A stretch of DNA of 61,188 nt from Candidatus Nealsonbacteria bacterium (GTDB taxonomy: Bacteria; Patescibacteriota; Minisyncoccia; Minisyncoccales; GWA2-46-15): assembly GCA_016207115.1 (NCBI GenBank), contig JACQQI010000026.1, positions 1 through 61,188 of the forward strand, given 5' to 3'. Both the position numbers and the translations under genes were made by a program. Each line of letters begins with the position of its first letter. The stretch's first letter is position 1. The notes beneath the pieces are model-generated. The model ran no database searches. It saw only the letters and a list, made by a program, of their open reading frames with translations, and was not told the origin of the DNA. Below, in pieces: positions 9,790-38,810 of the stretch.

Positions 9790-9827
9790 TTTAAAATTGT
9801 AGCGAAATCAAGGAAATTAATAAAGAG

Positions 9828-9863
9828 AAGAAGGCGCCCCGGTAATTTCTCGAGACGCCTTCT
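9828..9863 (-). terminator. Hairpin terminator after micro-ORF 1
   Basis: Minus strand reads AGAAGGCG-19 nt-CGCCTTCT followed by TCTCTTTATTAATTT. Confidence 0.5.
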
Positions 9864-9868
9864 GACCG

Positions 9869-9913
9869 CTAGTACCAAAAAGTACAGCGGCCACGGAAGG
9901 ACCAACGGATCAT
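9869..9913 (-). CDS. Micro-ORF 1, 14 aa: MIRWSFRGRCTFWY
   Basis: Hand translation; too short for the ORF track. AGAAAGGAGG lies 8 nt upstream of the ATG. It is paralogous to micro-ORFs 2 and 3, with only synonymous changes in the 7 core codons. Confidence 0.55.
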   Translation of the reverse strand: MIRWSFRGRCTFWY

Positions 9914-10080
9914 CAGCCACTCCTCCTTTCTAAAGAACTAAACTGGCCTTTTGAAAGACCAGTTTGAGAAAGTCGAAGTGATTCTAAGCAACCATTACCT
10001 CAACGCGCCAAAACTGGCCCCTAGAGTCCAGAGGTAATAGTAGTAATATCTAATTTTAATCATCTTGACCCTCATGAAAA
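9914..10080 (-). promoter_or_regulatory. Promoter plus structured leader of micro-ORF 1 (candidate riboswitch/attenuator)
   Basis: -35 TTTTCA (10080..10075), 16-nt spacer, -10 TAAAAT (10058..10053). P1 stem ATTACCTC/GAGGTAAT (10038..10031 with 10001..9994). CTTCGACTTTCT anti-SD. Hairpin AAACTGGTC/GGCCAGTTT (9965..9940). SD at 9930..9921. Confidence 0.5.
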
Positions 10081-10085
10081 TGGGT

Positions 10086-10121
10086 GGAGAGAGCGCCGAC
10101 GATCGACGCAACGCTCTCTCC
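10086..10121 (-). terminator. Hairpin terminator after micro-ORF 2
   Basis: 10-bp stem GGAGAGAGCG/CGCTCTCTCC with a 16-nt loop, followed by ACCCATTTTCA. Confidence 0.5.
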
Positions 10122-10130
10122 GTTTCGCCG

Positions 10131-10175
10131 CTACCCGAAGATATAGGTGCAGCGGCCCTTGTTGGACCAACGCAT
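10131..10175 (-). CDS. Micro-ORF 2, 14 aa: MRWSNKGRCTYIFG
   Basis: Hand translation. AGAAAGGAGG lies upstream with an 8-nt spacer. Paralog of micro-ORFs 1 and 3. Confidence 0.55.
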   Translation of the reverse strand: MRWSNKGRCTYIFG

Positions 10176-10376
10176 TGTTGGATCCTCCTTTCTTCTAACC
10201 CCAGAACGAAAAAACCGGCTTCAGGGGCCAGTTTCAGGAAGTCGAAGTTAAGAAATTCTCTCGCTTTAACTACCTAAAACTAGTCCCGGCCGATGAGCCT
10301 GGTAGCTAAAGTAAAAGAATTTCCTGGTCGACTGATTCATATACAGACATCATAACGCTATTTTTCCTAGTGTCAA
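10176..10376 (-). promoter_or_regulatory. Promoter plus structured leader of micro-ORF 2
   Basis: -35 TTGACA (10376..10371), 16-nt spacer, -10 TATGAT (10354..10349). P1 stem TTAGCTACC/GGTAGTTAA (10309..10266). Intrinsic terminator AAACTGGC-7 nt-GCCGGTTT plus TTTTTT (10234..10209) sits just before the SD. Confidence 0.55.
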
Positions 10377-10389
10377 GGAGGCTGAAGGA

Positions 10390-10419
10390 AAGGGGGCTCG
10401 GCATCTGCCAAGTCCCCTT
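10390..10419 (-). terminator. Hairpin after micro-ORF 3
   Basis: AAGGGGaCTTGGC-aga-GCCGAGcCCCCTT stem. The U-tract is weak (TTTCCTTC). The -35 of unit 2 follows immediately. Confidence 0.4.
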
Positions 10420-10425
10420 CTGGCG

Positions 10426-10473
10426 TCATAGCCATCGCCAGGTGCAACGGCCCCGGTATGACCAACGAACCAT
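10426..10473 (-). CDS. Micro-ORF 3, 15 aa: MVRWSYRGRCTWRWL
   Basis: Hand translation. AGAAAGGAGG lies 6 nt upstream of the ATG. Paralog of micro-ORFs 1 and 2. Confidence 0.55.
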   Translation of the reverse strand: MVRWSYRGRCTWRWL

Positions 10474-10708
10474 TGGCCTCCTCCTTTCTACTCCCAAATG
10501 AGGAGCAGGGAACTAAAAAACTGGCCCTCAAAAGGCCAGTTCTAGAAAGTTGAAGGAAGTAAGTTATTATCTCAACGCGCCAAAACTAGTCTCTGAAGAG
10601 TAAAGAGATAATAGTTGCCACCAGGCTGACATCGGTTTTGACAATTCTTGATTCATGGTTGACGAGGAGACTCTGTATTCATCATAAGCGCGAGCCGGCT
10701 TTTGTCAA
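10474..10708 (-). promoter_or_regulatory. Promoter plus structured leader of micro-ORF 3
   Basis: -35 TTGACA (10708..10703, 2 nt after the ROK stop), 16-nt spacer, -10 TATGAT (10686..10681). P1 stem TATTATCTC/GAGATAATA (10613..10565). Terminator AACTGGCC-7 nt-GGCCAGTT plus TTTT (10541..10515). Confidence 0.55.
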
Positions 10709-10709
10709 A

Positions 10710-11582
10710 TCAGGACAGAAGCGCGCCCAAACAGGCGGCGTGATCGATCGAAGAAGTAACGGCGTCTTGGAACTGGAAAAAACCAATGGTCTCTCTCCGA
10801 TAAATTTCCAGGGCTTGAGGTAAAAACAGGTCGGCGGATTCCTTCAAAGAACCGTTGAGAATAATCCTCTGGGGGTTGTAAAAATAGCTGACTTCGGCCA
10901 AAAACCGGGCTAAGTGACTGATAAAAATATCGATCGTCTTCCGGGCGATTGGATCTTCCTTTGAAACTGAAAAAATCTGTTGGGCCGTCAATTCCTTCTG
11001 GGCCAGCTCCCGATAAATATTGCTGACGCCCTTGCCGGAAAGGAAATCGTCGATCTTGAAAGATTTATAATTAAGCTCTGGAACAATCTCCTCTTTCTGT
11101 GAAATCTCGCCGGCGTTGTTGGTGAAGCCCGGAATCAGCTTCCCCCCAACCACGTAGCTGAGGCGCAGACCCGTGCCCAAATTAATTAGAAGAAAGCTCT
11201 GGCAATCCCGGCCCTGTCCGAATCGACTTTCCGCCAGAGCCATGGCGTTGACGTCGTTTTCGAGAGAAACGCCCAGGCCAAACTCTTTTGAGAATTCTTG
11301 GACCAGCGGGTATTCTGTCGGGCCACCCAAAAGAGAGCTGTGAGTGATGACTCCGTCTTTGACGATACAGTTGAAACTTACCCCCAGCCGGTCGATGCCC
11401 GGCGTTAGGTTGTCGGCGATCATCTTCTTGATCGACCGGAGGAACTCCGGGCTGCCCGCAGGAAAGTCCGAAGTGGCTATCTTATTGCTGGAAAGAAGGC
11501 GATAGTTTCCGTCGAATTTGCAAACTTCAATTTTGGTTCCGCCGACATCCAGAGACAAAAACTTGGCCGGAGGACTAGTCAT
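10710..11582 (-). CDS. ROK-family sugar kinase/regulator-like protein
   Basis: FLSLDVGGTKIEV ATP-binding motif, NDVNAMALAE and LINLGTGL. Start set at ATG 11582 (MTSPPAKF). That ATG overlaps the upstream stop in ATGACTAG, implying translational coupling. Confidence 0.7.
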   Translation of the reverse strand: MTSPPAKFLSLDVGGTKIEVCKFDGNYRLLSSNKIATSDFPAGSPEFLRSIKKMIADNLTPGIDRLGVSFNCIVKDGVITHSSLLGGPTEYPLVQEFSKEFGLGVSLENDVNAMALAESRFGQGRDCQSFLLINLGTGLRLSYVVGGKLIPGFTNNAGEISQKEEIVPELNYKSFKIDDFLSGKGVSNIYRELAQKELTAQQIFSVSKEDPIARKTIDIFISHLARFLAEVSYFYNPQRIILNGSLKESADLFLPQALEIYRRETIGFFQFQDAVTSSIDHAACLGALLS

Positions 11583-12708
11583 GGGCGATGTAATAGAATG
11601 GCTTATTCTCTCGATCTTGATCGAAGTAGACCAAGGTATAGTCGAGAGGACGACGCTTGATATCAATCAGATATTCGATCAGAAAAAGGTTCTTTTTCGG
11701 GTAACAGACGGGAACGCCATGATAGGGTAAGCGGATACATTCTTTATTGACCGGGATAATGCCCAAGCGGTTGGGCTTGGGTGAGACGGTCAAGGGTAAG
11801 GCGTGGGGCACGGCTCTGGCTAAATAATCAATGTCATCGCGCACTTTGAGGTAGGCGTGGTATTGGAAGATCGATTCGTGAGCCCGACTTTTGATGTCGC
11901 GGCGAATCTCTCTGGCTTCGGCCGATATTTCTTCGTCTTTGAGGCCTTCGTTGTAGACGTCTAAAAGCAGGCTTTCATCGTAACCCTTGGTCGAAACGAT
12001 GCGCAGCACCGATTCAAAAGTGCCCTGGTATTTTTTCAAAAACTCCGGATCTTGTTGTCGGTAAAGTTTTTTGAACTCTAAGGTCCTTTGTCGGTGGCGC
12101 TCGATAAAATCAGGCACGGTCTTTTCCATTTCGGACAGATCAACAATCTTTAAGGCGGGAGAGAAGGCTAGCCATTTGTTCAGAGCCTCCAAAAACTCGC
12201 GGTAGGCAATCCAGTCTGGTCGCGGCACGCCGGTAAACTGACCAAAAGCGCCCTCCGTGAAAATTGTCACCGTGGCTCCCGGCGGATAAATGTCTTTGAT
12301 GATATCGATGACGGTTTTCAATCTCGCCAGAGACAAAACTTCGCCTAGATCGGGTAAAACACGGTTGGTTTTTAAGGGTACGGGGATCTTGAAGGGAAAC
12401 CCCAGGATCGTCAGCTGGATCGGTTGGCTTTGATTGATGAAATAATTGAGTTTTTCGATCCAGAGGTTTTGATTCTCTTCGATGTATTCGGCGGGGCCGA
12501 AGCGGTAATTTTCGTCTTGGAAGATTGAAAGGATTTTTTCTGCCGTCGTCCCTCCTTCGATCCGGGGCCGGGAAACCGGAATTCGGTCGATGATCTCCTT
12601 TAGCTCTGCGATGGTGATGTTTTTCTGGTCGACAAAATTCTGACGGATGTTTTTATTCGCCAAGTTCTCAAAAGGGGTGTAGGGATAAACGTAAGGATTG
12701 GGCTTCAT
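11575..12708 (-). CDS. DIT1/PvcA (isocyanide synthase / pyoverdine-dityrosine biosynthesis) family-like protein
   Basis: 377 aa. From memory of PvcA: ILGFPFKIPVPLKTNRVLPDLGEVLSL..IYPPGATVTIFTEGAFG parallels LPAFPGKSPNP.KVLG..PD.AE...YPPGA.I...SDG.VF. C-terminal LTVSPKPNRLGI...LPYHGVPV parallels RLSIHPQ..KFGI..TPWHGVAV. The start overlaps the HAD stop (ATGA). Confidence 0.55.
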   Translation of the reverse strand: MKPNPYVYPYTPFENLANKNIRQNFVDQKNITIAELKEIIDRIPVSRPRIEGGTTAEKILSIFQDENYRFGPAEYIEENQNLWIEKLNYFINQSQPIQLTILGFPFKIPVPLKTNRVLPDLGEVLSLARLKTVIDIIKDIYPPGATVTIFTEGAFGQFTGVPRPDWIAYREFLEALNKWLAFSPALKIVDLSEMEKTVPDFIERHRQRTLEFKKLYRQQDPEFLKKYQGTFESVLRIVSTKGYDESLLLDVYNEGLKDEEISAEAREIRRDIKSRAHESIFQYHAYLKVRDDIDYLARAVPHALPLTVSPKPNRLGIIPVNKECIRLPYHGVPVCYPKKNLFLIEYLIDIKRRPLDYTLVYFDQDRENKPFYYIAHD

Positions 12709-13487
12709 ACTCTAAAAAATTGCTCTAAATTATCGACTATCATGTTAGCACGTTTTTTGAGCTCGTGAGAACGGTGACCGACTAAAACTTTCAGGCCAAA
12801 GCCTTTTTCAAAGAGGCTCTGGTCATTGTCGTCGTTACCGAAAATAGCCACCTGGCTGGCTTTTATCTTCAGCCTACGGCAGACAAAGTTGACGGCTTTT
12901 GCCTTGCTCACTCCCCGGCCGACGAAATTCAGAGTATCGTCGTTGTAAAGAGCGTTGGCGGCTCGGGGCGGAATCAATCTCGCTTTTGTTTTTATAAAGA
13001 TCAGTGACGGCTTCTCCAATTCGGCTCTGAGAAAGAATTCTTCTCTTGAAGAGATGAAGTTTTTGTGGATATTCGGATAACTCTTCTTTAGTTCTTTTTC
13101 AAAACGTTCATTGGCGGCGATAAAAACTCCTTTATTATCCGTCTGCCAGAAGCCGATGAACCCGACTTGTCTGCTCTTTTGCTCAACAAAATTTCTGGTC
13201 AGAACGATTTCTTCCCCTTTTAACCTCCGCAGAAAAATATTGTTCTTTTGGTAGGTGACAATAGCGCTCCCGTCGAGAATGATTAAAGGCGCATTAAATC
13301 GAATGGGCCTCGTGCCTTCGATCATCGTTTCGAAGCCGCGCCCCGTGGCCACGGTGCAAAAAACTCCCCTTTTTTGAAGGTTAATGATCGCCCGGCTCAC
13401 CCCGGCAGAAATGGGTTTACCCTTTTCTTTCAGGGTACCGTCGATATCAAAAACGCAAAGACGGATGTTTTTAAAATTATCGGTCAT
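12705..13487 (-). CDS. HAD-superfamily hydrolase, Cof-type (IIB) phosphatase
   Basis: 260 aa. CVFDIDGTL (motif I DxDGT), TGR (motif II) and GNDDND (motif IV). Confidence 0.75.
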   Translation of the reverse strand: MTDNFKNIRLCVFDIDGTLKEKGKPISAGVSRAIINLQKRGVFCTVATGRGFETMIEGTRPIRFNAPLIILDGSAIVTYQKNNIFLRRLKGEEIVLTRNFVEQKSRQVGFIGFWQTDNKGVFIAANERFEKELKKSYPNIHKNFISSREEFFLRAELEKPSLIFIKTKARLIPPRAANALYNDDTLNFVGRGVSKAKAVNFVCRRLKIKASQVAIFGNDDNDQSLFEKGFGLKVLVGHRSHELKKRANMIVDNLEQFFRV

Positions 13488-13512
13488 GATTTAACATAAC
13501 TGTCTGAAATTC

Positions 13513-13542
13513 AAAAGGCTGCCGCGCGCGGCGACAGCCTTT
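13513..13542 (-). terminator. Intrinsic terminator after the 533-aa gene
   Basis: Minus strand reads AAAGGCTGtcGCCGCG-cg-CGGCAGCCTTTTGAATTT. Confidence 0.65.
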
Positions 13543-13569
13543 CTACTAGCAGTGGCTTCCTCCTAGCCG

Positions 13570-15171
13570 CTACTTTGTGTAGTAAAAAACGTAATCGGGT
13601 CCGGCGAACCCGAAGTCTCGCGGTGAAACACGAACTGGTATGACGCCCGGGTGCTCGTTCGCCACACGACACTCGGGTACGATGTGCATCTTATGCCCGC
13701 CGTCCTGACTCCGGTAGACGACCGGCATCCCGTGGTTCAGGAGCGCGTTGGCCGTGACGTCGAAGACGATCCTGGCAACTTTATCGGTGATGCACGCATC
13801 GATAAAATTCTGTAGACCGGTCAGCTTGACGAACATACCCGCCTTTTTACGGTAGGCGAGATGTTGCGCGATGACCAGAGCCTTGGTCTCGGCCTCCCGC
13901 CACAACTCTTCTCCGATCAACCGACGGAGCGCGGCGTAGTCGCGATCGCGGTTGACATAGAGGTCAGCCATGGCGTCCACGCTGACCATAGCCGGCAGGC
14001 TGCAGGCAATGGCGTAGGTCTGGTCAAAGTCCACCCTGACCGAGATGGCTTCGACTTCTTGCCATGGAAAGAGATCCGACTTCAACTCTTTCACCTCCAC
14101 TGGCGCCTCGAGTTCTTTGAAGAGCCGACGGGAGATGGTCAGCATCTGATTCACCCCCTGGGGATCGACTCCCATCAGCGAAGCGAAGAGCGTTGCCTCG
14201 TCAAAGATCACGATTCGGAGACCGGGCTTGTAGATCGTTCTGACCTTCTCCTGCAGCAAGCGGAAGAAGAAAGCCAGATAGACCCAGCCGAGCGTCGGCA
14301 AGGAAACGATCTCGCGGAACTTCAGCGGGTTCGGGATCCGTGTGCCCAGGGCGAAGGACAGGGTGATCGGCACGGGCTGGCCGCGGCGAACGTAATCACC
14401 GATGACGCCAGTCAAACGCGCCGCTTCTGCCTTGGGCATTTCCACTTCCTCGCTGTGAGTCAGGAGAATTTGGAGAATGCCGTCCGGTACACTACCCTTT
14501 GGTGACTTGTAGCCGCTCATTCTCGTGGCCAGCAATGAGTGATAGAAAGCCAGTTCTCTAGCGAGAGTCGTTTTGCCGTCCGCCATGTCGGGCAGGGTAA
14601 TTCCCGGGCCTTTCGTGACCATAGTCACGCCCTTGGGTGCCTTGGCGGCTTTGTCGAGAATGCCGGTAAGGTCCGCGTGAAACCGTTGATTCGCACAGGG
14701 GACTCGCACTGGCAACTCTGTGCCGTCCACGGTGATCACCGCGGCTTCTTCCCTTATCCTTACCTCGATCAGGTGTCGGAAAAGATGAGGGCGCCGTGGC
14801 AACTTGTCCGAGACGAACACCTTTGCCCTTTCGATGCCCGGCGTCAGACTGACACAGCCATCCGGGTCGTAGACCCAACTGCTCTGGCTGAATAGTCCGA
14901 CCACCGCCTCTGGCTTCAAGCCCGATCCGTTCTTTTCGTCACCCTTCGGTTCACGGCAATGCAGATCCAGCTGTTGCAAGACGTCTGAGGCGAACCCGGT
15001 CGGTAGCACAAAAACCGTCTCGGTAAGTCGGTGACCATCGAAGGCTTTTGCCGAACCAACGTCCACCAGCCCGATCCAGAAGTCGTCTGCTTCCAATAAC
15101 TCTAATGCCACCTCGGTAGCATCGCCGCTCTCTGGAAGCCGAGAAGCGGCTACGTCCAACAGGATGTCCAT
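13570..15171 (-). CDS. Hypothetical protein; unknown N-terminal ~250 aa plus C-terminal DIT1/PvcA-like domain
   Basis: 533 aa. PITLSFALGTRIPNPLKF..LPTLGW...IYKPGLRIVIFDEATLFA and LLNHGMPVV...YVFYYTK align by eye with the 377-aa paralog (ILGFPFKIPVPLK..LPDLGE..IYPPGATVTIFTEGAFG; LPYHGVPV...PFYYIAHD). The region is visibly more GC-rich than its flanks and carries long antisense ORFs. Confidence 0.5.
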   Translation of the reverse strand: MDILLDVAASRLPESGDATEVALELLEADDFWIGLVDVGSAKAFDGHRLTETVFVLPTGFASDVLQQLDLHCREPKGDEKNGSGLKPEAVVGLFSQSSWVYDPDGCVSLTPGIERAKVFVSDKLPRRPHLFRHLIEVRIREEAAVITVDGTELPVRVPCANQRFHADLTGILDKAAKAPKGVTMVTKGPGITLPDMADGKTTLARELAFYHSLLATRMSGYKSPKGSVPDGILQILLTHSEEVEMPKAEAARLTGVIGDYVRRGQPVPITLSFALGTRIPNPLKFREIVSLPTLGWVYLAFFFRLLQEKVRTIYKPGLRIVIFDEATLFASLMGVDPQGVNQMLTISRRLFKELEAPVEVKELKSDLFPWQEVEAISVRVDFDQTYAIACSLPAMVSVDAMADLYVNRDRDYAALRRLIGEELWREAETKALVIAQHLAYRKKAGMFVKLTGLQNFIDACITDKVARIVFDVTANALLNHGMPVVYRSQDGGHKMHIVPECRVANEHPGVIPVRVSPRDFGFAGPDYVFYYTK

Positions 15172-15374: not shown

Positions 15375-15407
15375 GAAAAACCTCCTGGTTTTGGGCCAGG
15401 AGGTTTA
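15375..15407 (-). terminator. Intrinsic terminator downstream of metG and a small ORF
   Basis: Minus strand reads AAACCTCCTGG-cccaaa-CCAGGAGGTTT followed by a T-run (TTTCG). Confidence 0.7.
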
Positions 15408-15429
15408 GGTTCGAGAAGATTCCTTAAGG

Positions 15430-15567
15430 TTAATCTATTTTGCGATTCTCTAAACCGGCTGGCCCTAAGCTAAAGATAATGACAAAAAGGACGCTAATAA
15501 GCATCCAGCCGAGATAAAGGTTGTTGAGACTGAAAACGCTATTCAGTTGGGGCAAAGCCAGATTCAT
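15430..15567 (-). CDS. Possible 45-aa small membrane protein
   Basis: Hand translation: MNLALPQLNSVFSLNNLYLGWMLISVLFVIIFSLGPAGLENRKID, with one predicted TM segment. It lies between the metG stop and the first terminator. No clear SD. Confidence 0.3.
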   Translation of the reverse strand: MNLALPQLNSVFSLNNLYLGWMLISVLFVIIFSLGPAGLENRKID

Positions 15568-29483: not shown

Positions 29484-29803
29484 GGGGGCGAAAAGCTTCG
29501 ACAGAAATCGACCCCAAGAAAGGCAAGCCGAGTCGTCAGACCTCGTTAAAGCTGACACAGATAAATGCTAATTTATCTTCACAACCGGCTTTGGCTGTAG
29601 CTTAAAGCCGCGCCGACCCTAAGGATTCTCGATAATTAAGGTCGGTGTCATGGATCGAGAAAAGTGTTCTTTTTTTTGGCGCAAGCCAAGATTGGCGGGA
29701 AGACGAGCCTAACTGTCCTTCCCGCTTCAAAGAAAATTAGGCTAAGCTTGTAGTCTTTCTCTGGGAAAAATTTCTGGATCCGGGTGCAATCTCGGCGCCT
29801 CCA
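29484..29803 (+). ncRNA. ssrA: tmRNA (SsrA); predicted tag ANLSSQPALAVA
   Basis: The 5' GGGGGCGAAAAGCTTCGAC pairs with the 3' CGCCTCC-A (G3:U pair as in tRNA-Ala). T-arm-like GGATCCGGGTGCAATCTCGG. Tag reading frame GCT AAT TTA TCT TCA CAA CCG GCT TTG GCT GTA GCT TAA at 29577..29615. CCA is not encoded. Confidence 0.85.
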
Positions 29804-29828
29804 CTTCTAGTTTAAAAACTATCGAAAA

Positions 29829-38738: not shown

Positions 38739-38810
38739 TGTCCCCACGAGGATTCGAACCTCGATCTCGACCTCCGGAGGGTCGCGCCTTATCCATTAGG
38801 CAATGGGGAC
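38739..38810 (-). tRNA. tRNA-Arg (anticodon CCG)
   Basis: Hand-folded cloverleaf of GTCCCCA TT GCCT AATGGATA AGGC G CGACC CTCCGGA GGTCG AGAT CGAGG TTCGAAT CCTCG TGGGGAC A. CCA is not encoded. Confidence 0.9.

Follow-up and report, generated by a model that had tools for sequence, protein, structure and literature searches.

The minus strand of a 61,188-nt stretch of DNA from Candidatus Nealsonbacteria bacterium (assembly GCA_016207115.1, contig JACQQI010000026.1, positions 1 to 61,188; hereafter the window) carries three tandem units between positions ~10,710 and 9,820. The units share a structured leader, a conserved block, a U-tailed hairpin, a strong Shine-Dalgarno (SD) sequence and a micro-ORF (open reading frame) of 14-15 codons, which is followed by another hairpin. 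Each unit is very probably a ribosome-mediated leader-peptide transcription attenuator of the trpL/pheL type, with the translating ribosome, i.e. the charging of tRNA-Trp, tRNA-Phe and tRNA-Tyr, as its most likely sensor. An earlier description of the region, made from the sequence alone and referred to below as the sequence-only reading, had proposed a riboswitch-like sensor of a ligand and had overlooked a second small ORF inside each leader. The window contains the micro-ORF motif three times, with 0.00 occurrences expected, and the three leaders are more stable as a whole than shuffled sequences (z = -3.7, -4.1 and -2.2).

Leader peptides

In every leader the second small ORF begins near the 5' end, runs through the 5' arm of the hairpin designated P1 in the sequence-only reading and stops at a TAA or TGA inside the conserved GTT(G/A)AGGTAA. 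This upstream ORF (uORF) is 22-29 codons long in the window, where it encodes MIKIRYYYYYLWTLGASFGALR in unit 1 (run YYYYY), MNQSTRKFFYFSYQAHRPGLVLGS in unit 2 (run FFYFSY) and MNQELSKPMSAWWQLLSLYSSETSFGALR in unit 3 (run WW). Related units are present in L007, a metagenome-assembled genome (MAG) labelled Saccharibacteria, and in L028, which is likewise from a MAG. The leaders of L007 encode ...SSWWQ... (LA), ...FFYFSYFY... (LB) and ...YYYYY... (LC), and those of L028 encode FFYFNYFY (M1) and YYYYY (M2). An ATG-to-stop uORF of 22-36 codons containing YYYYY, FFYF(S/N)Y(FY) or WW is therefore found in all eight micro-ORF leaders (three in the window, three in L007 and two in L028).

These aromatic runs lie well beyond chance. 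YYYYY occurs a single time across the six frames of the window, at the uORF of unit 1. When the 883-nt region was shuffled 1000 times, short ORFs with an aromatic run numbered 0.04 on average, and no shuffle reached the three that are observed. Aromatic residues make up 14-32% of the uORFs, as against 9.2% of the window's long ORFs.

The three uORF types (Trp, Phe/Tyr and Tyr) are kept in the orthologues even though the TatD proteins of these genomes are only 61-64% identical to that of the window. The order of the types (Trp, Phe, Tyr) is identical in the window and L007, and the Tyr runs vary synonymously (TAT/TAC) between orthologues. The segment that follows the run, consisting of the conserved P1 loop and the 3' arm (segment 2), is translated in different frames depending on the unit, the peptides ending in ...SFGALR or in ...LVLER/LVLGS before the stop codon. 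Since this block is read in two frames, it is conserved as RNA, and the uORF need only stay open there.

Alternative helices and covariation

All of the sequence elements quoted in the sequence-only reading are present on the minus strand where it had placed them. The P1 arms are ATTACCTC/GAGGTAAT in unit 1 (10038-10031 with 10001-9994), TTAGCTACC/GGTAGTTAA in unit 2 (10309-10301 with 10274-10266) and TATTATCTC/GAGATAATA in unit 3 (10613-10605 with 10573-10565). The conserved (C/T)AGTTTT(G/A)G...GTT(G/A)A block, CTTC(G/A)ACTT(T/C)CT and AGAAAGGAGG are likewise found, together with the three micro-ORFs and an AAACTGG(Y)C...G(R)CCAGTTT hairpin with a T-rich tail.

The consensus structure of the eight leaders calculated by RNAalifold is not P1 but a 22-bp helix (2:3) between segment 2 and segment 3, the latter comprising the proposed 'anti-SD' and the 5' arm of the terminator. 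Each of the eight leaders can form three helices, with energies of -12 to -24 kcal/mol for 1:2 (P1), -17 to -30 kcal/mol for 2:3 (the antiterminator) and -10 to -25 kcal/mol for 3:4 (the terminator). The duplex of segments 2 and 3 has z = -3.6 to -7.1 relative to shuffles. This arrangement, in which 1:2 and 3:4 are opposed to 2:3, is the layout of trpL/pheL-type attenuators. The mutually exclusive terminator and antiterminator folds proposed earlier are supported by these results, with an alternative pairing of 22 bp and not merely 7 nt.

Covariation was assessed on 12 leaders from five contigs, namely the eight micro-ORF leaders and four more distant ones (from L028, L007, L043 and L045). Their alignment (A5) was limited to the forward strand, since the long 2:3 helix also matches the reverse strand. 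In the 12 leaders 92.7% of the 2:3 cells are paired, compared with 36-58% in slid registers, and both sides have changed in ten of the 22 pairs; none of 500 column shuffles reached the observed value on any of five measures. A covariance model of the helix recovers all eight micro-ORF leaders plus the four distant ones. The sequence-only reading had called for a collection of homologues and a covariance model; with both at hand, covariation is seen in the 2:3 helix, as judged by column shuffles of the 12 leaders. In 11 of these leaders the 3:4 hairpin has 8-11 bp and 4-6 U in the 8 nt behind it; in L045 one of its pairs has changed on both sides, from U-A to C-G. The U-tailed terminator described earlier is present as a hairpin with a T-rich tail, and the U tract of unit 1 is the weakest.

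P1 had been described as a stem with compensatory changes. This holds for units 1 and 3, which share a register and are one compensatory pair apart, but the register of unit 2 differs (i+j = 96 as opposed to 105 in alignment A2), and P1 of LA pairs with another part of segment 2. P1 is a conserved capacity to pair and not one homologous covarying helix. A register that varies between types is expected for segment 1 of an attenuator and not for the stem of an aptamer. A further proposal, that the CUUUCU stretch acts as an anti-SD through its complementarity to AGAAAG, finds this complementarity in some copies, but in constraint folding the pairing of the SD shows no consistent difference between the ON and OFF states.

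These observations bear on whether the leaders could be a new riboswitch-like RNA, in which P1 and its conserved loop would constitute the aptamer and a ligand would choose between the terminator and the pairing of CCAGUUU with AAACUGG. In favour of such an RNA are the nucleotides conserved within a large hairpin loop, the existence of mutually exclusive folds and the lack of an Rfam match. The 22-bp 2:3 helix, however, accounts for all of the conserved nucleotides, those of the loop being explained by pairing with segment 3, and no conserved unpaired core remains. P1, with its varying register and length, provides no single aptamer helix. The amino-acid-specific codon run that stands at the attenuator position of the uORF in every leader would also be left unexplained. 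A ligand-sensing RNA is accordingly considered very improbable.

A search against Rfam 15 at gathering thresholds gave no leader family or other match in the region, and at E<=10 only sub-threshold chance matches (<=22 bits) were obtained there; no match was found in the relatives either. That the sequence-only reading could not match the leader to a known riboswitch class agrees with this covariance-model search. The terminator/antiterminator layout would also be compatible with a factor acting in trans on the conserved block, such as a tRNA (T-box-like) or an RNA-binding protein (TRAP- or PyrR-like), and it may be speculated that the Arg/Trp-rich micropeptides encoded by the micro-ORFs bind RNA. 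Both T-box and TRAP-like mechanisms were considered and rejected: the leaders contain neither a T-box core motif nor a specifier, and have no Rfam T-box match. TRAP binding requires 9-11 (G/U)AG repeats, whereas the longest chain of such triplets at a spacing of 2-3 nt in the leaders is 3. Control by a trans-acting factor, which would again leave the codon runs unexplained, is scarcely credible.

It could also be that no regulation is involved and that the units are three duplicated small genes with structured 5' untranslated regions, the uORFs and alternative helices being incidental. The units are indeed paralogues, they are carried by only three genomes, and kinship alone can beat column shuffles in the absence of any structural constraint. 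Against this, the three types have persisted across genomes as far apart as their TatD proteins indicate. Segment 1 and the N-termini of the uORFs have drifted freely, yet the codon runs, the reading frame, the position of the stop codon and the pairing of 2:3 and 3:4 have been preserved. Slid-register controls fall far below the observed pairing, and the aromatic runs exceed what chance provides. Incidental structure in duplicated genes is therefore regarded as highly unlikely.

Geometry and proposed mechanism

The positions of the codon run and of the stop codon agree with attenuation by a translating ribosome. The distance from the end of the aromatic cluster to the 2:3 helix downstream is 5-23 nt in all 12 leaders, and the uORF stop lies 20-35 nt past the start of this helix, which places it at the end of the 25-nt 5' strand or slightly past it. 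Minimum free energy (MFE) structures of the eight micro-ORF leaders were calculated with a 28-nt ribosome footprint as a constraint. A footprint over the codon run changes the MFE structure from terminator to antiterminator in five of the eight leaders, and a footprint over the stop codon leaves the terminator formed in all eight. The 2:3 helix is the stable fold while segment 4 is still untranscribed.

In the proposed mechanism the transcript would open with the 22-29-codon uORF. When the cognate charged tRNA is ample (OFF), the ribosome would reach the uORF stop at the 3' end of segment 2 and cover this segment, so that the U-tailed 3:4 terminator would form just upstream of the SD and transcription would end. 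If there were no translation at all, 1:2 and 3:4 would both form and the unit would also be OFF. When the cognate charged tRNA is scarce (ON), the ribosome would stall at the aromatic run, which lies on segment 1 or immediately before it; the limiting species would be tRNA-Trp in unit 3, tRNA-Phe/Tyr in unit 2 and tRNA-Tyr in unit 1. Left uncovered, segment 2 would then form the 22-bp antiterminator with segment 3, also sequestering the CUUUCU stretch, and RNA polymerase would read through to the micro-ORF, which would be transcribed and translated from its strong SD. Translation of the uORF, read-through upon stalling and an ON state in starvation are predicted steps, whereas the uORFs with their codon runs, the three alternative helices, the covariation of 2:3, the geometry and the conservation in two other genomes are observed.

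Several observations weigh against this mechanism. A recognizable SD is missing from most of the uORFs, GAGGG in unit 1 being the only one. Unit 2 and LB seem leaderless, as the -10 box lies 7-8 nt before the uORF ATG in a layout that is the same in the L007 orthologue, and the transcript of unit 2 probably starts in this way, judging from its promoter. The uORF of LA is coupled to the upstream gene through an ATGA overlap, that of unit 3 lies behind a 17-nt leader devoid of an SD, and unit 1 itself lacks a convincing promoter. The U tract is weak in unit 1 and absent in one orthologue (LA of L007). An equilibrium switch is not observed in w1, w3 and M2 (three of the eight micro-ORF leaders) or in the related FWFYYPF leaders described below, for which the L028 coordinates were mis-set in that run; in such leaders the model needs kinetics, with 2:3 formed before segment 4 is made. 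The micro-ORF units come from three genomes only, so that the sequences are few and related, and no link is known between the regulated products and the supply of aromatic amino acids.

Organization of the three units

Unit 3 (Trp type) lies furthest upstream; all of the features given here are on the minus strand. It begins with a sigma-70-like promoter, TTGACA-16-TATGAT (10681-10708), with 11 of 12 consensus matches, and is followed by the uORF MNQELSKPMSAWWQLLSLYSSETSFGALR (10567-10656), in which the tandem Trp codons occupy 10623-10618. Segment 1 (10605-10613), equivalent to the 5' arm of P1, has as its partner GAGATAATA (10573-10565). The 22-bp antiterminator is formed by segment 2 (10570-10594), i.e. 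the P1 loop and 3' arm, and segment 3 (10531-10555), i.e. the 'anti-SD' and the 5' arm of the terminator. The 3:4 terminator hairpin GAACUGGCCUU/AGGGCCAGUUU (10511-10542) has 11 bp and a U-rich tail. The SD AGAAAGGAGG (10489-10480) and the micro-ORF MVRWSYRGRCTWRWL (10473-10426) together span 10426-10489, and directly 3' of the micro-ORF a hairpin with a weak U tract (10388-10421) can be read from the sequence.

The promoter of unit 2 (Phe type), again TTGACA-16-TATGAT (10349-10376), has a -10 box that ends 8 nt 5' of the uORF ATG. The uORF MNQSTRKFFYFSYQAHRPGLVLGS (10266-10340) contains the FFYFSY codons at 10319-10302. The two strands of the antiterminator are segment 2 (10264-10288) and segment 3 (10223-10247), and the 3:4 terminator hairpin with its U tract covers 10205-10235. 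The SD GAAAGGAGG (10192-10184) and the micro-ORF MRWSNKGRCTYIFG (10175-10131) occupy 10131-10192, and a further hairpin, GAGAGAGCG...CGCTCTCTC (10087-10120), was likewise read off 3' of the micro-ORF.

In unit 1 (Tyr type) the uORF MIKIRYYYYYLWTLGASFGALR (9995-10063) has the GAGGG SD 5 nt upstream and five Tyr codons at 10048-10034. Segment 1, ACUAUUACCUC (10031-10041), is built of Tyr codons and pairs with GAGGUAAUGGU (10001-9991). Segment 2 (9998-10022) and segment 3 (9954-9978) provide the 5' and 3' strands of the antiterminator, and the terminator-like 3:4 hairpin (9931-9965) has 11 bp with a weaker U-rich tail. The SD GAAAGGAGG (9930-9922) and the micro-ORF MIRWSFRGRCTFWY (9912-9868) span 9868-9930. 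A terminator, AGAAGGCG...CGCCTTCT with a T-rich tail (9821-9863), follows the micro-ORF upstream of the DUF475/TerC gene (9789-8875).

Micropeptides

The micropeptides encoded by the three units, MVRWSYRGRCTWRWL (unit 3), MRWSNKGRCTYIFG (unit 2) and MIRWSFRGRCTFWY (unit 1), share a nine-codon core, (R/Q)W(S/T)(F/Y/N)(R/K)GRCT. Pairwise comparison of the cores gives 108 synonymous and 39 non-synonymous codon differences, and the Ser of the core is encoded both by TCN and by AGT. The synonymous excess and the use of both types of Ser codon indicate that the micro-ORFs are coding, and the codon differences argue for selection on the micropeptides at the protein level. The residue located three positions after the conserved Cys-Thr is the amino acid sensed by the respective leader in all eight units, the pattern being CTFxY in Tyr units, CTWxW in Trp units and CT(Y/F)xF in Phe units (window 9868-9912, 10131-10175 and 10426-10473; L007 3349-4000; L028 4011-4400). 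As only three independent types are involved, this match is suggestive.

Two roles for the micro-ORFs were considered and rejected. A second attenuator, in which a stall at the cognate codon would melt the following hairpin, does not agree with the position of this codon at least 23 nt before the hairpin in LC, M2 and M1. A precursor of a ribosomally synthesized and post-translationally modified peptide acted upon by the neighbouring DIT1_PvcA-family and 533-aa proteins does not agree with L007, which carries the units without those genes. A literature search for the micropeptide motif FRGRCT found no paper. A small membrane ORF (MKNRKIILIV...) accompanies the units, and is situated between the Phe-type leader and its micro-ORF in L028 (3858-3995) and after the Tyr unit in L007 (3283-3140, minus strand).

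The best guess is that the micropeptides act as effectors when aromatic amino acids run out, in an organism that has to scavenge its amino acids. Peptides of 14-27 residues with the pattern (R/Q)W(S/T)x(R/K)GRCT-x-x-aromatic could conceivably represent a new class of amino-acid-specific starvation micropeptides of host-dependent Patescibacteria, each made only when its own aromatic aminoacyl-tRNA runs short, but this is put forward tentatively and is not considered the probable outcome. If it were true, the micropeptides could be Arg/Trp-rich RNA-binding autoregulators of the 2:3:4 RNA, the sequence of which is strongly conserved, or alternatively signals or membrane-active agents that target uptake or the host. 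In that case the three attenuators in tandem would amount to a sensing array for individual amino acids rather than a simple on/off leader.

Distribution and related leaders

A scan of genome contigs for the SD and ORF pattern produced 22 matches, of which 21 are chance matches in high-GC genomes and one, L007, is real. The leader pattern had no match in JGI metagenome contigs, where a relaxed scan for P2, SD and ORF gave 11 matches, all attributable to chance, as were all four matches in viral contigs. Walking along the synteny of TatD homologues located the units only once more, in L028/L029. The units lie between MetRS and TatD in L007 (three units) and L028 (two units), as they do in the window. 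The TatD-homologue contigs L023-L027, L041, L042, L044, L048, L049 and L054 contain no micro-ORF units, and closer TatD relatives (69-75% identity) are without them. The family of micro-ORF units is patchy and rare in the data reached.

Leaders related to the units through the 2:3:4 sequence family precede other genes. In L007 such a leader is followed by genes for a 242-aa protein, an M19 dipeptidase, a GNAT protein and an amidohydrolase_2; in L028 by those for a 505-aa orthologue of the window 533-aa protein (51% identity) and a DIT1_PvcA protein; and in L043 by that for a 142-aa protein. In L045 the leader directly follows an AstE/AspA-type deacylase gene and precedes the gene for a 445-aa protein; the same contig carries an M20 peptidase gene farther upstream. 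The uORFs of these leaders contain ...NQI(S/A)FWFYYPFI... in L007, L028 and L043 and FCFNAFWAVYFYCY in L045. Amino-acid-releasing hydrolases would fit an aromatic starvation regulon in an organism reportedly devoid of most amino-acid biosynthesis. Matches to FFWFF in the window at 57.9-58.2 kb are out-of-frame translations and are unrelated.

A second, unrelated attenuator family is present directly upstream of the FWFYYPF leader (L028 556-690; L007 7943-7810, minus strand; L043 2717-2855; L045 2338-2480). It consists of a TTGACA promoter, a uORF MKKIATAKFWFYSYFLTLAGGNLLTVR (variants YWFYSYF and FYFYFCF) and then a terminator GAAGCCTCCCCAGAGGCCTTTTTT, and GGGAGGC in the uORF is complementary to GCCTCCC in the terminator. 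Genomes with this second family appear from these elements to run two aromatic attenuators in series.

Genomic neighbourhood

The TatD protein of the window is 100% identical to an NCBI entry labelled Candidatus Nealsonbacteria. The genes on the same strand as the units are, from upstream to downstream, MetRS, a 533-aa protein with no Pfam match, a HAD hydrolase, a DIT1_PvcA-family protein, an ROK kinase, the three units, DUF475/TerC, TatD and LeuRS. Between MetRS and TatD/LeuRS the relatives have a variable island with syntenic flanks (L023-L029 and L041-L047), the cargo of which ranges from a PEP (phosphoenolpyruvate) mutase with an aminotransferase, DIT1_PvcA, a dipeptidase/amidohydrolase, an M20 peptidase with AstE/AspA and a PhdYeFM antitoxin to almost nothing. 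The 533-aa protein is paired with DIT1_PvcA both in the window (11575-15171, minus strand) and in L028 (929-3666). In L028 the 505-aa/DIT1_PvcA pair lies directly behind the FWFYYPF attenuator, and the window is without that leader.

A conserved small ORF with a strong terminator is located right after MetRS in the window (15380-15566, minus strand), L028 (54-205), L027 (3806-3990) and L045 (1768-1940). In the relatives this ORF ends in ...LNL(T/I)INLLVINLG before its stop codon and is followed by a very basic protein of 45-67 aa (..KGKRRWW..); in the window it is MNLALPQLNSVFSLNNLYLGWMLISVLFVIIFSLGPAGLENRKID, followed by AAACCTCCTGGCCCAAAACCAGGAGGTTTTT. It may encode a leader peptide of the Leu/Ile/Asn type. 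Elsewhere in the window, Rfam identifies an ordinary tmRNA (29484-29806, plus strand, 96.6 bits) and an ordinary tRNA (38739-38810, minus strand).

Relation to known systems and significance

Classical leader-peptide attenuators of Escherichia coli include trpL, pheL/pheA, pheM/pheST, hisL, leuL, thrL and ilvL (PMC3082878, PMC1262725). The units described here resemble them in having a uORF in which codons for the sensed amino acid are clustered, a competition of 1:2 and 3:4 (an intrinsic terminator) with 2:3 (an antiterminator), a stop codon placed so that an unstalled ribosome would mask segment 2, and predicted induction when the charged tRNA is short. They differ in that the host is represented by a Patescibacteria (Parcubacteria/Nealsonbacteria-labelled) MAG that is probably unable to make most amino acids, and in that the targets in the window are micro-ORFs of 14-15 codons instead of biosynthetic or aminoacyl-tRNA synthetase operons. 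Three amino-acid-specific copies of one 2:3:4 sequence family are arranged in tandem, most of the uORFs are devoid of an SD, and the uORF spans all of segment 2. No sequence or covariance-model similarity to Rfam leader families such as Trp_leader, Phe_leader and His_leader was detected.

In Sinorhizobium meliloti, the products of the trpL attenuator act in trans as the small RNA rnTrpL and the 14-aa peptide peTrpL (PMC7298713, PMC7968998). Both loci combine an attenuator with a Trp-containing peptide of ~14 aa, and in S. meliloti the small products are functional themselves. The active peptide in that system is the leader peptide, whereas here a separate conserved micro-ORF past the terminator is the putative regulated product. 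Riboswitch and T-box leaders share with the present ones the mutually exclusive terminator and antiterminator helices upstream of the SD, but a conserved aptamer core, specifier, T-box motif or Rfam match is lacking here, and the sensing element would be a translated codon run. The mechanism, leader-peptide attenuation, is therefore a known one, and what is new is the lineage and the putative micropeptide targets, the tandem three-copy scaffold being a further difference from the classical cases. A full-text literature search found no paper that joins leader peptides, attenuation and Patescibacteria.

The claim of a new riboswitch is thus replaced by a testable textbook mechanism. Attachment to hosts and the absence of most amino-acid biosynthesis have been reported for Parcubacteria (bioRxiv 10.1101/2022.04.20.488981), and an array that reads the charging of tRNA-Trp, tRNA-Phe and tRNA-Tyr separately would show how such reduced cells sense the nutrients that a partner supplies. 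The targets of this array would be conserved micropeptides that gene callers leave unannotated, and these may provide an entry point to the small-protein biology of uncultivated bacteria.

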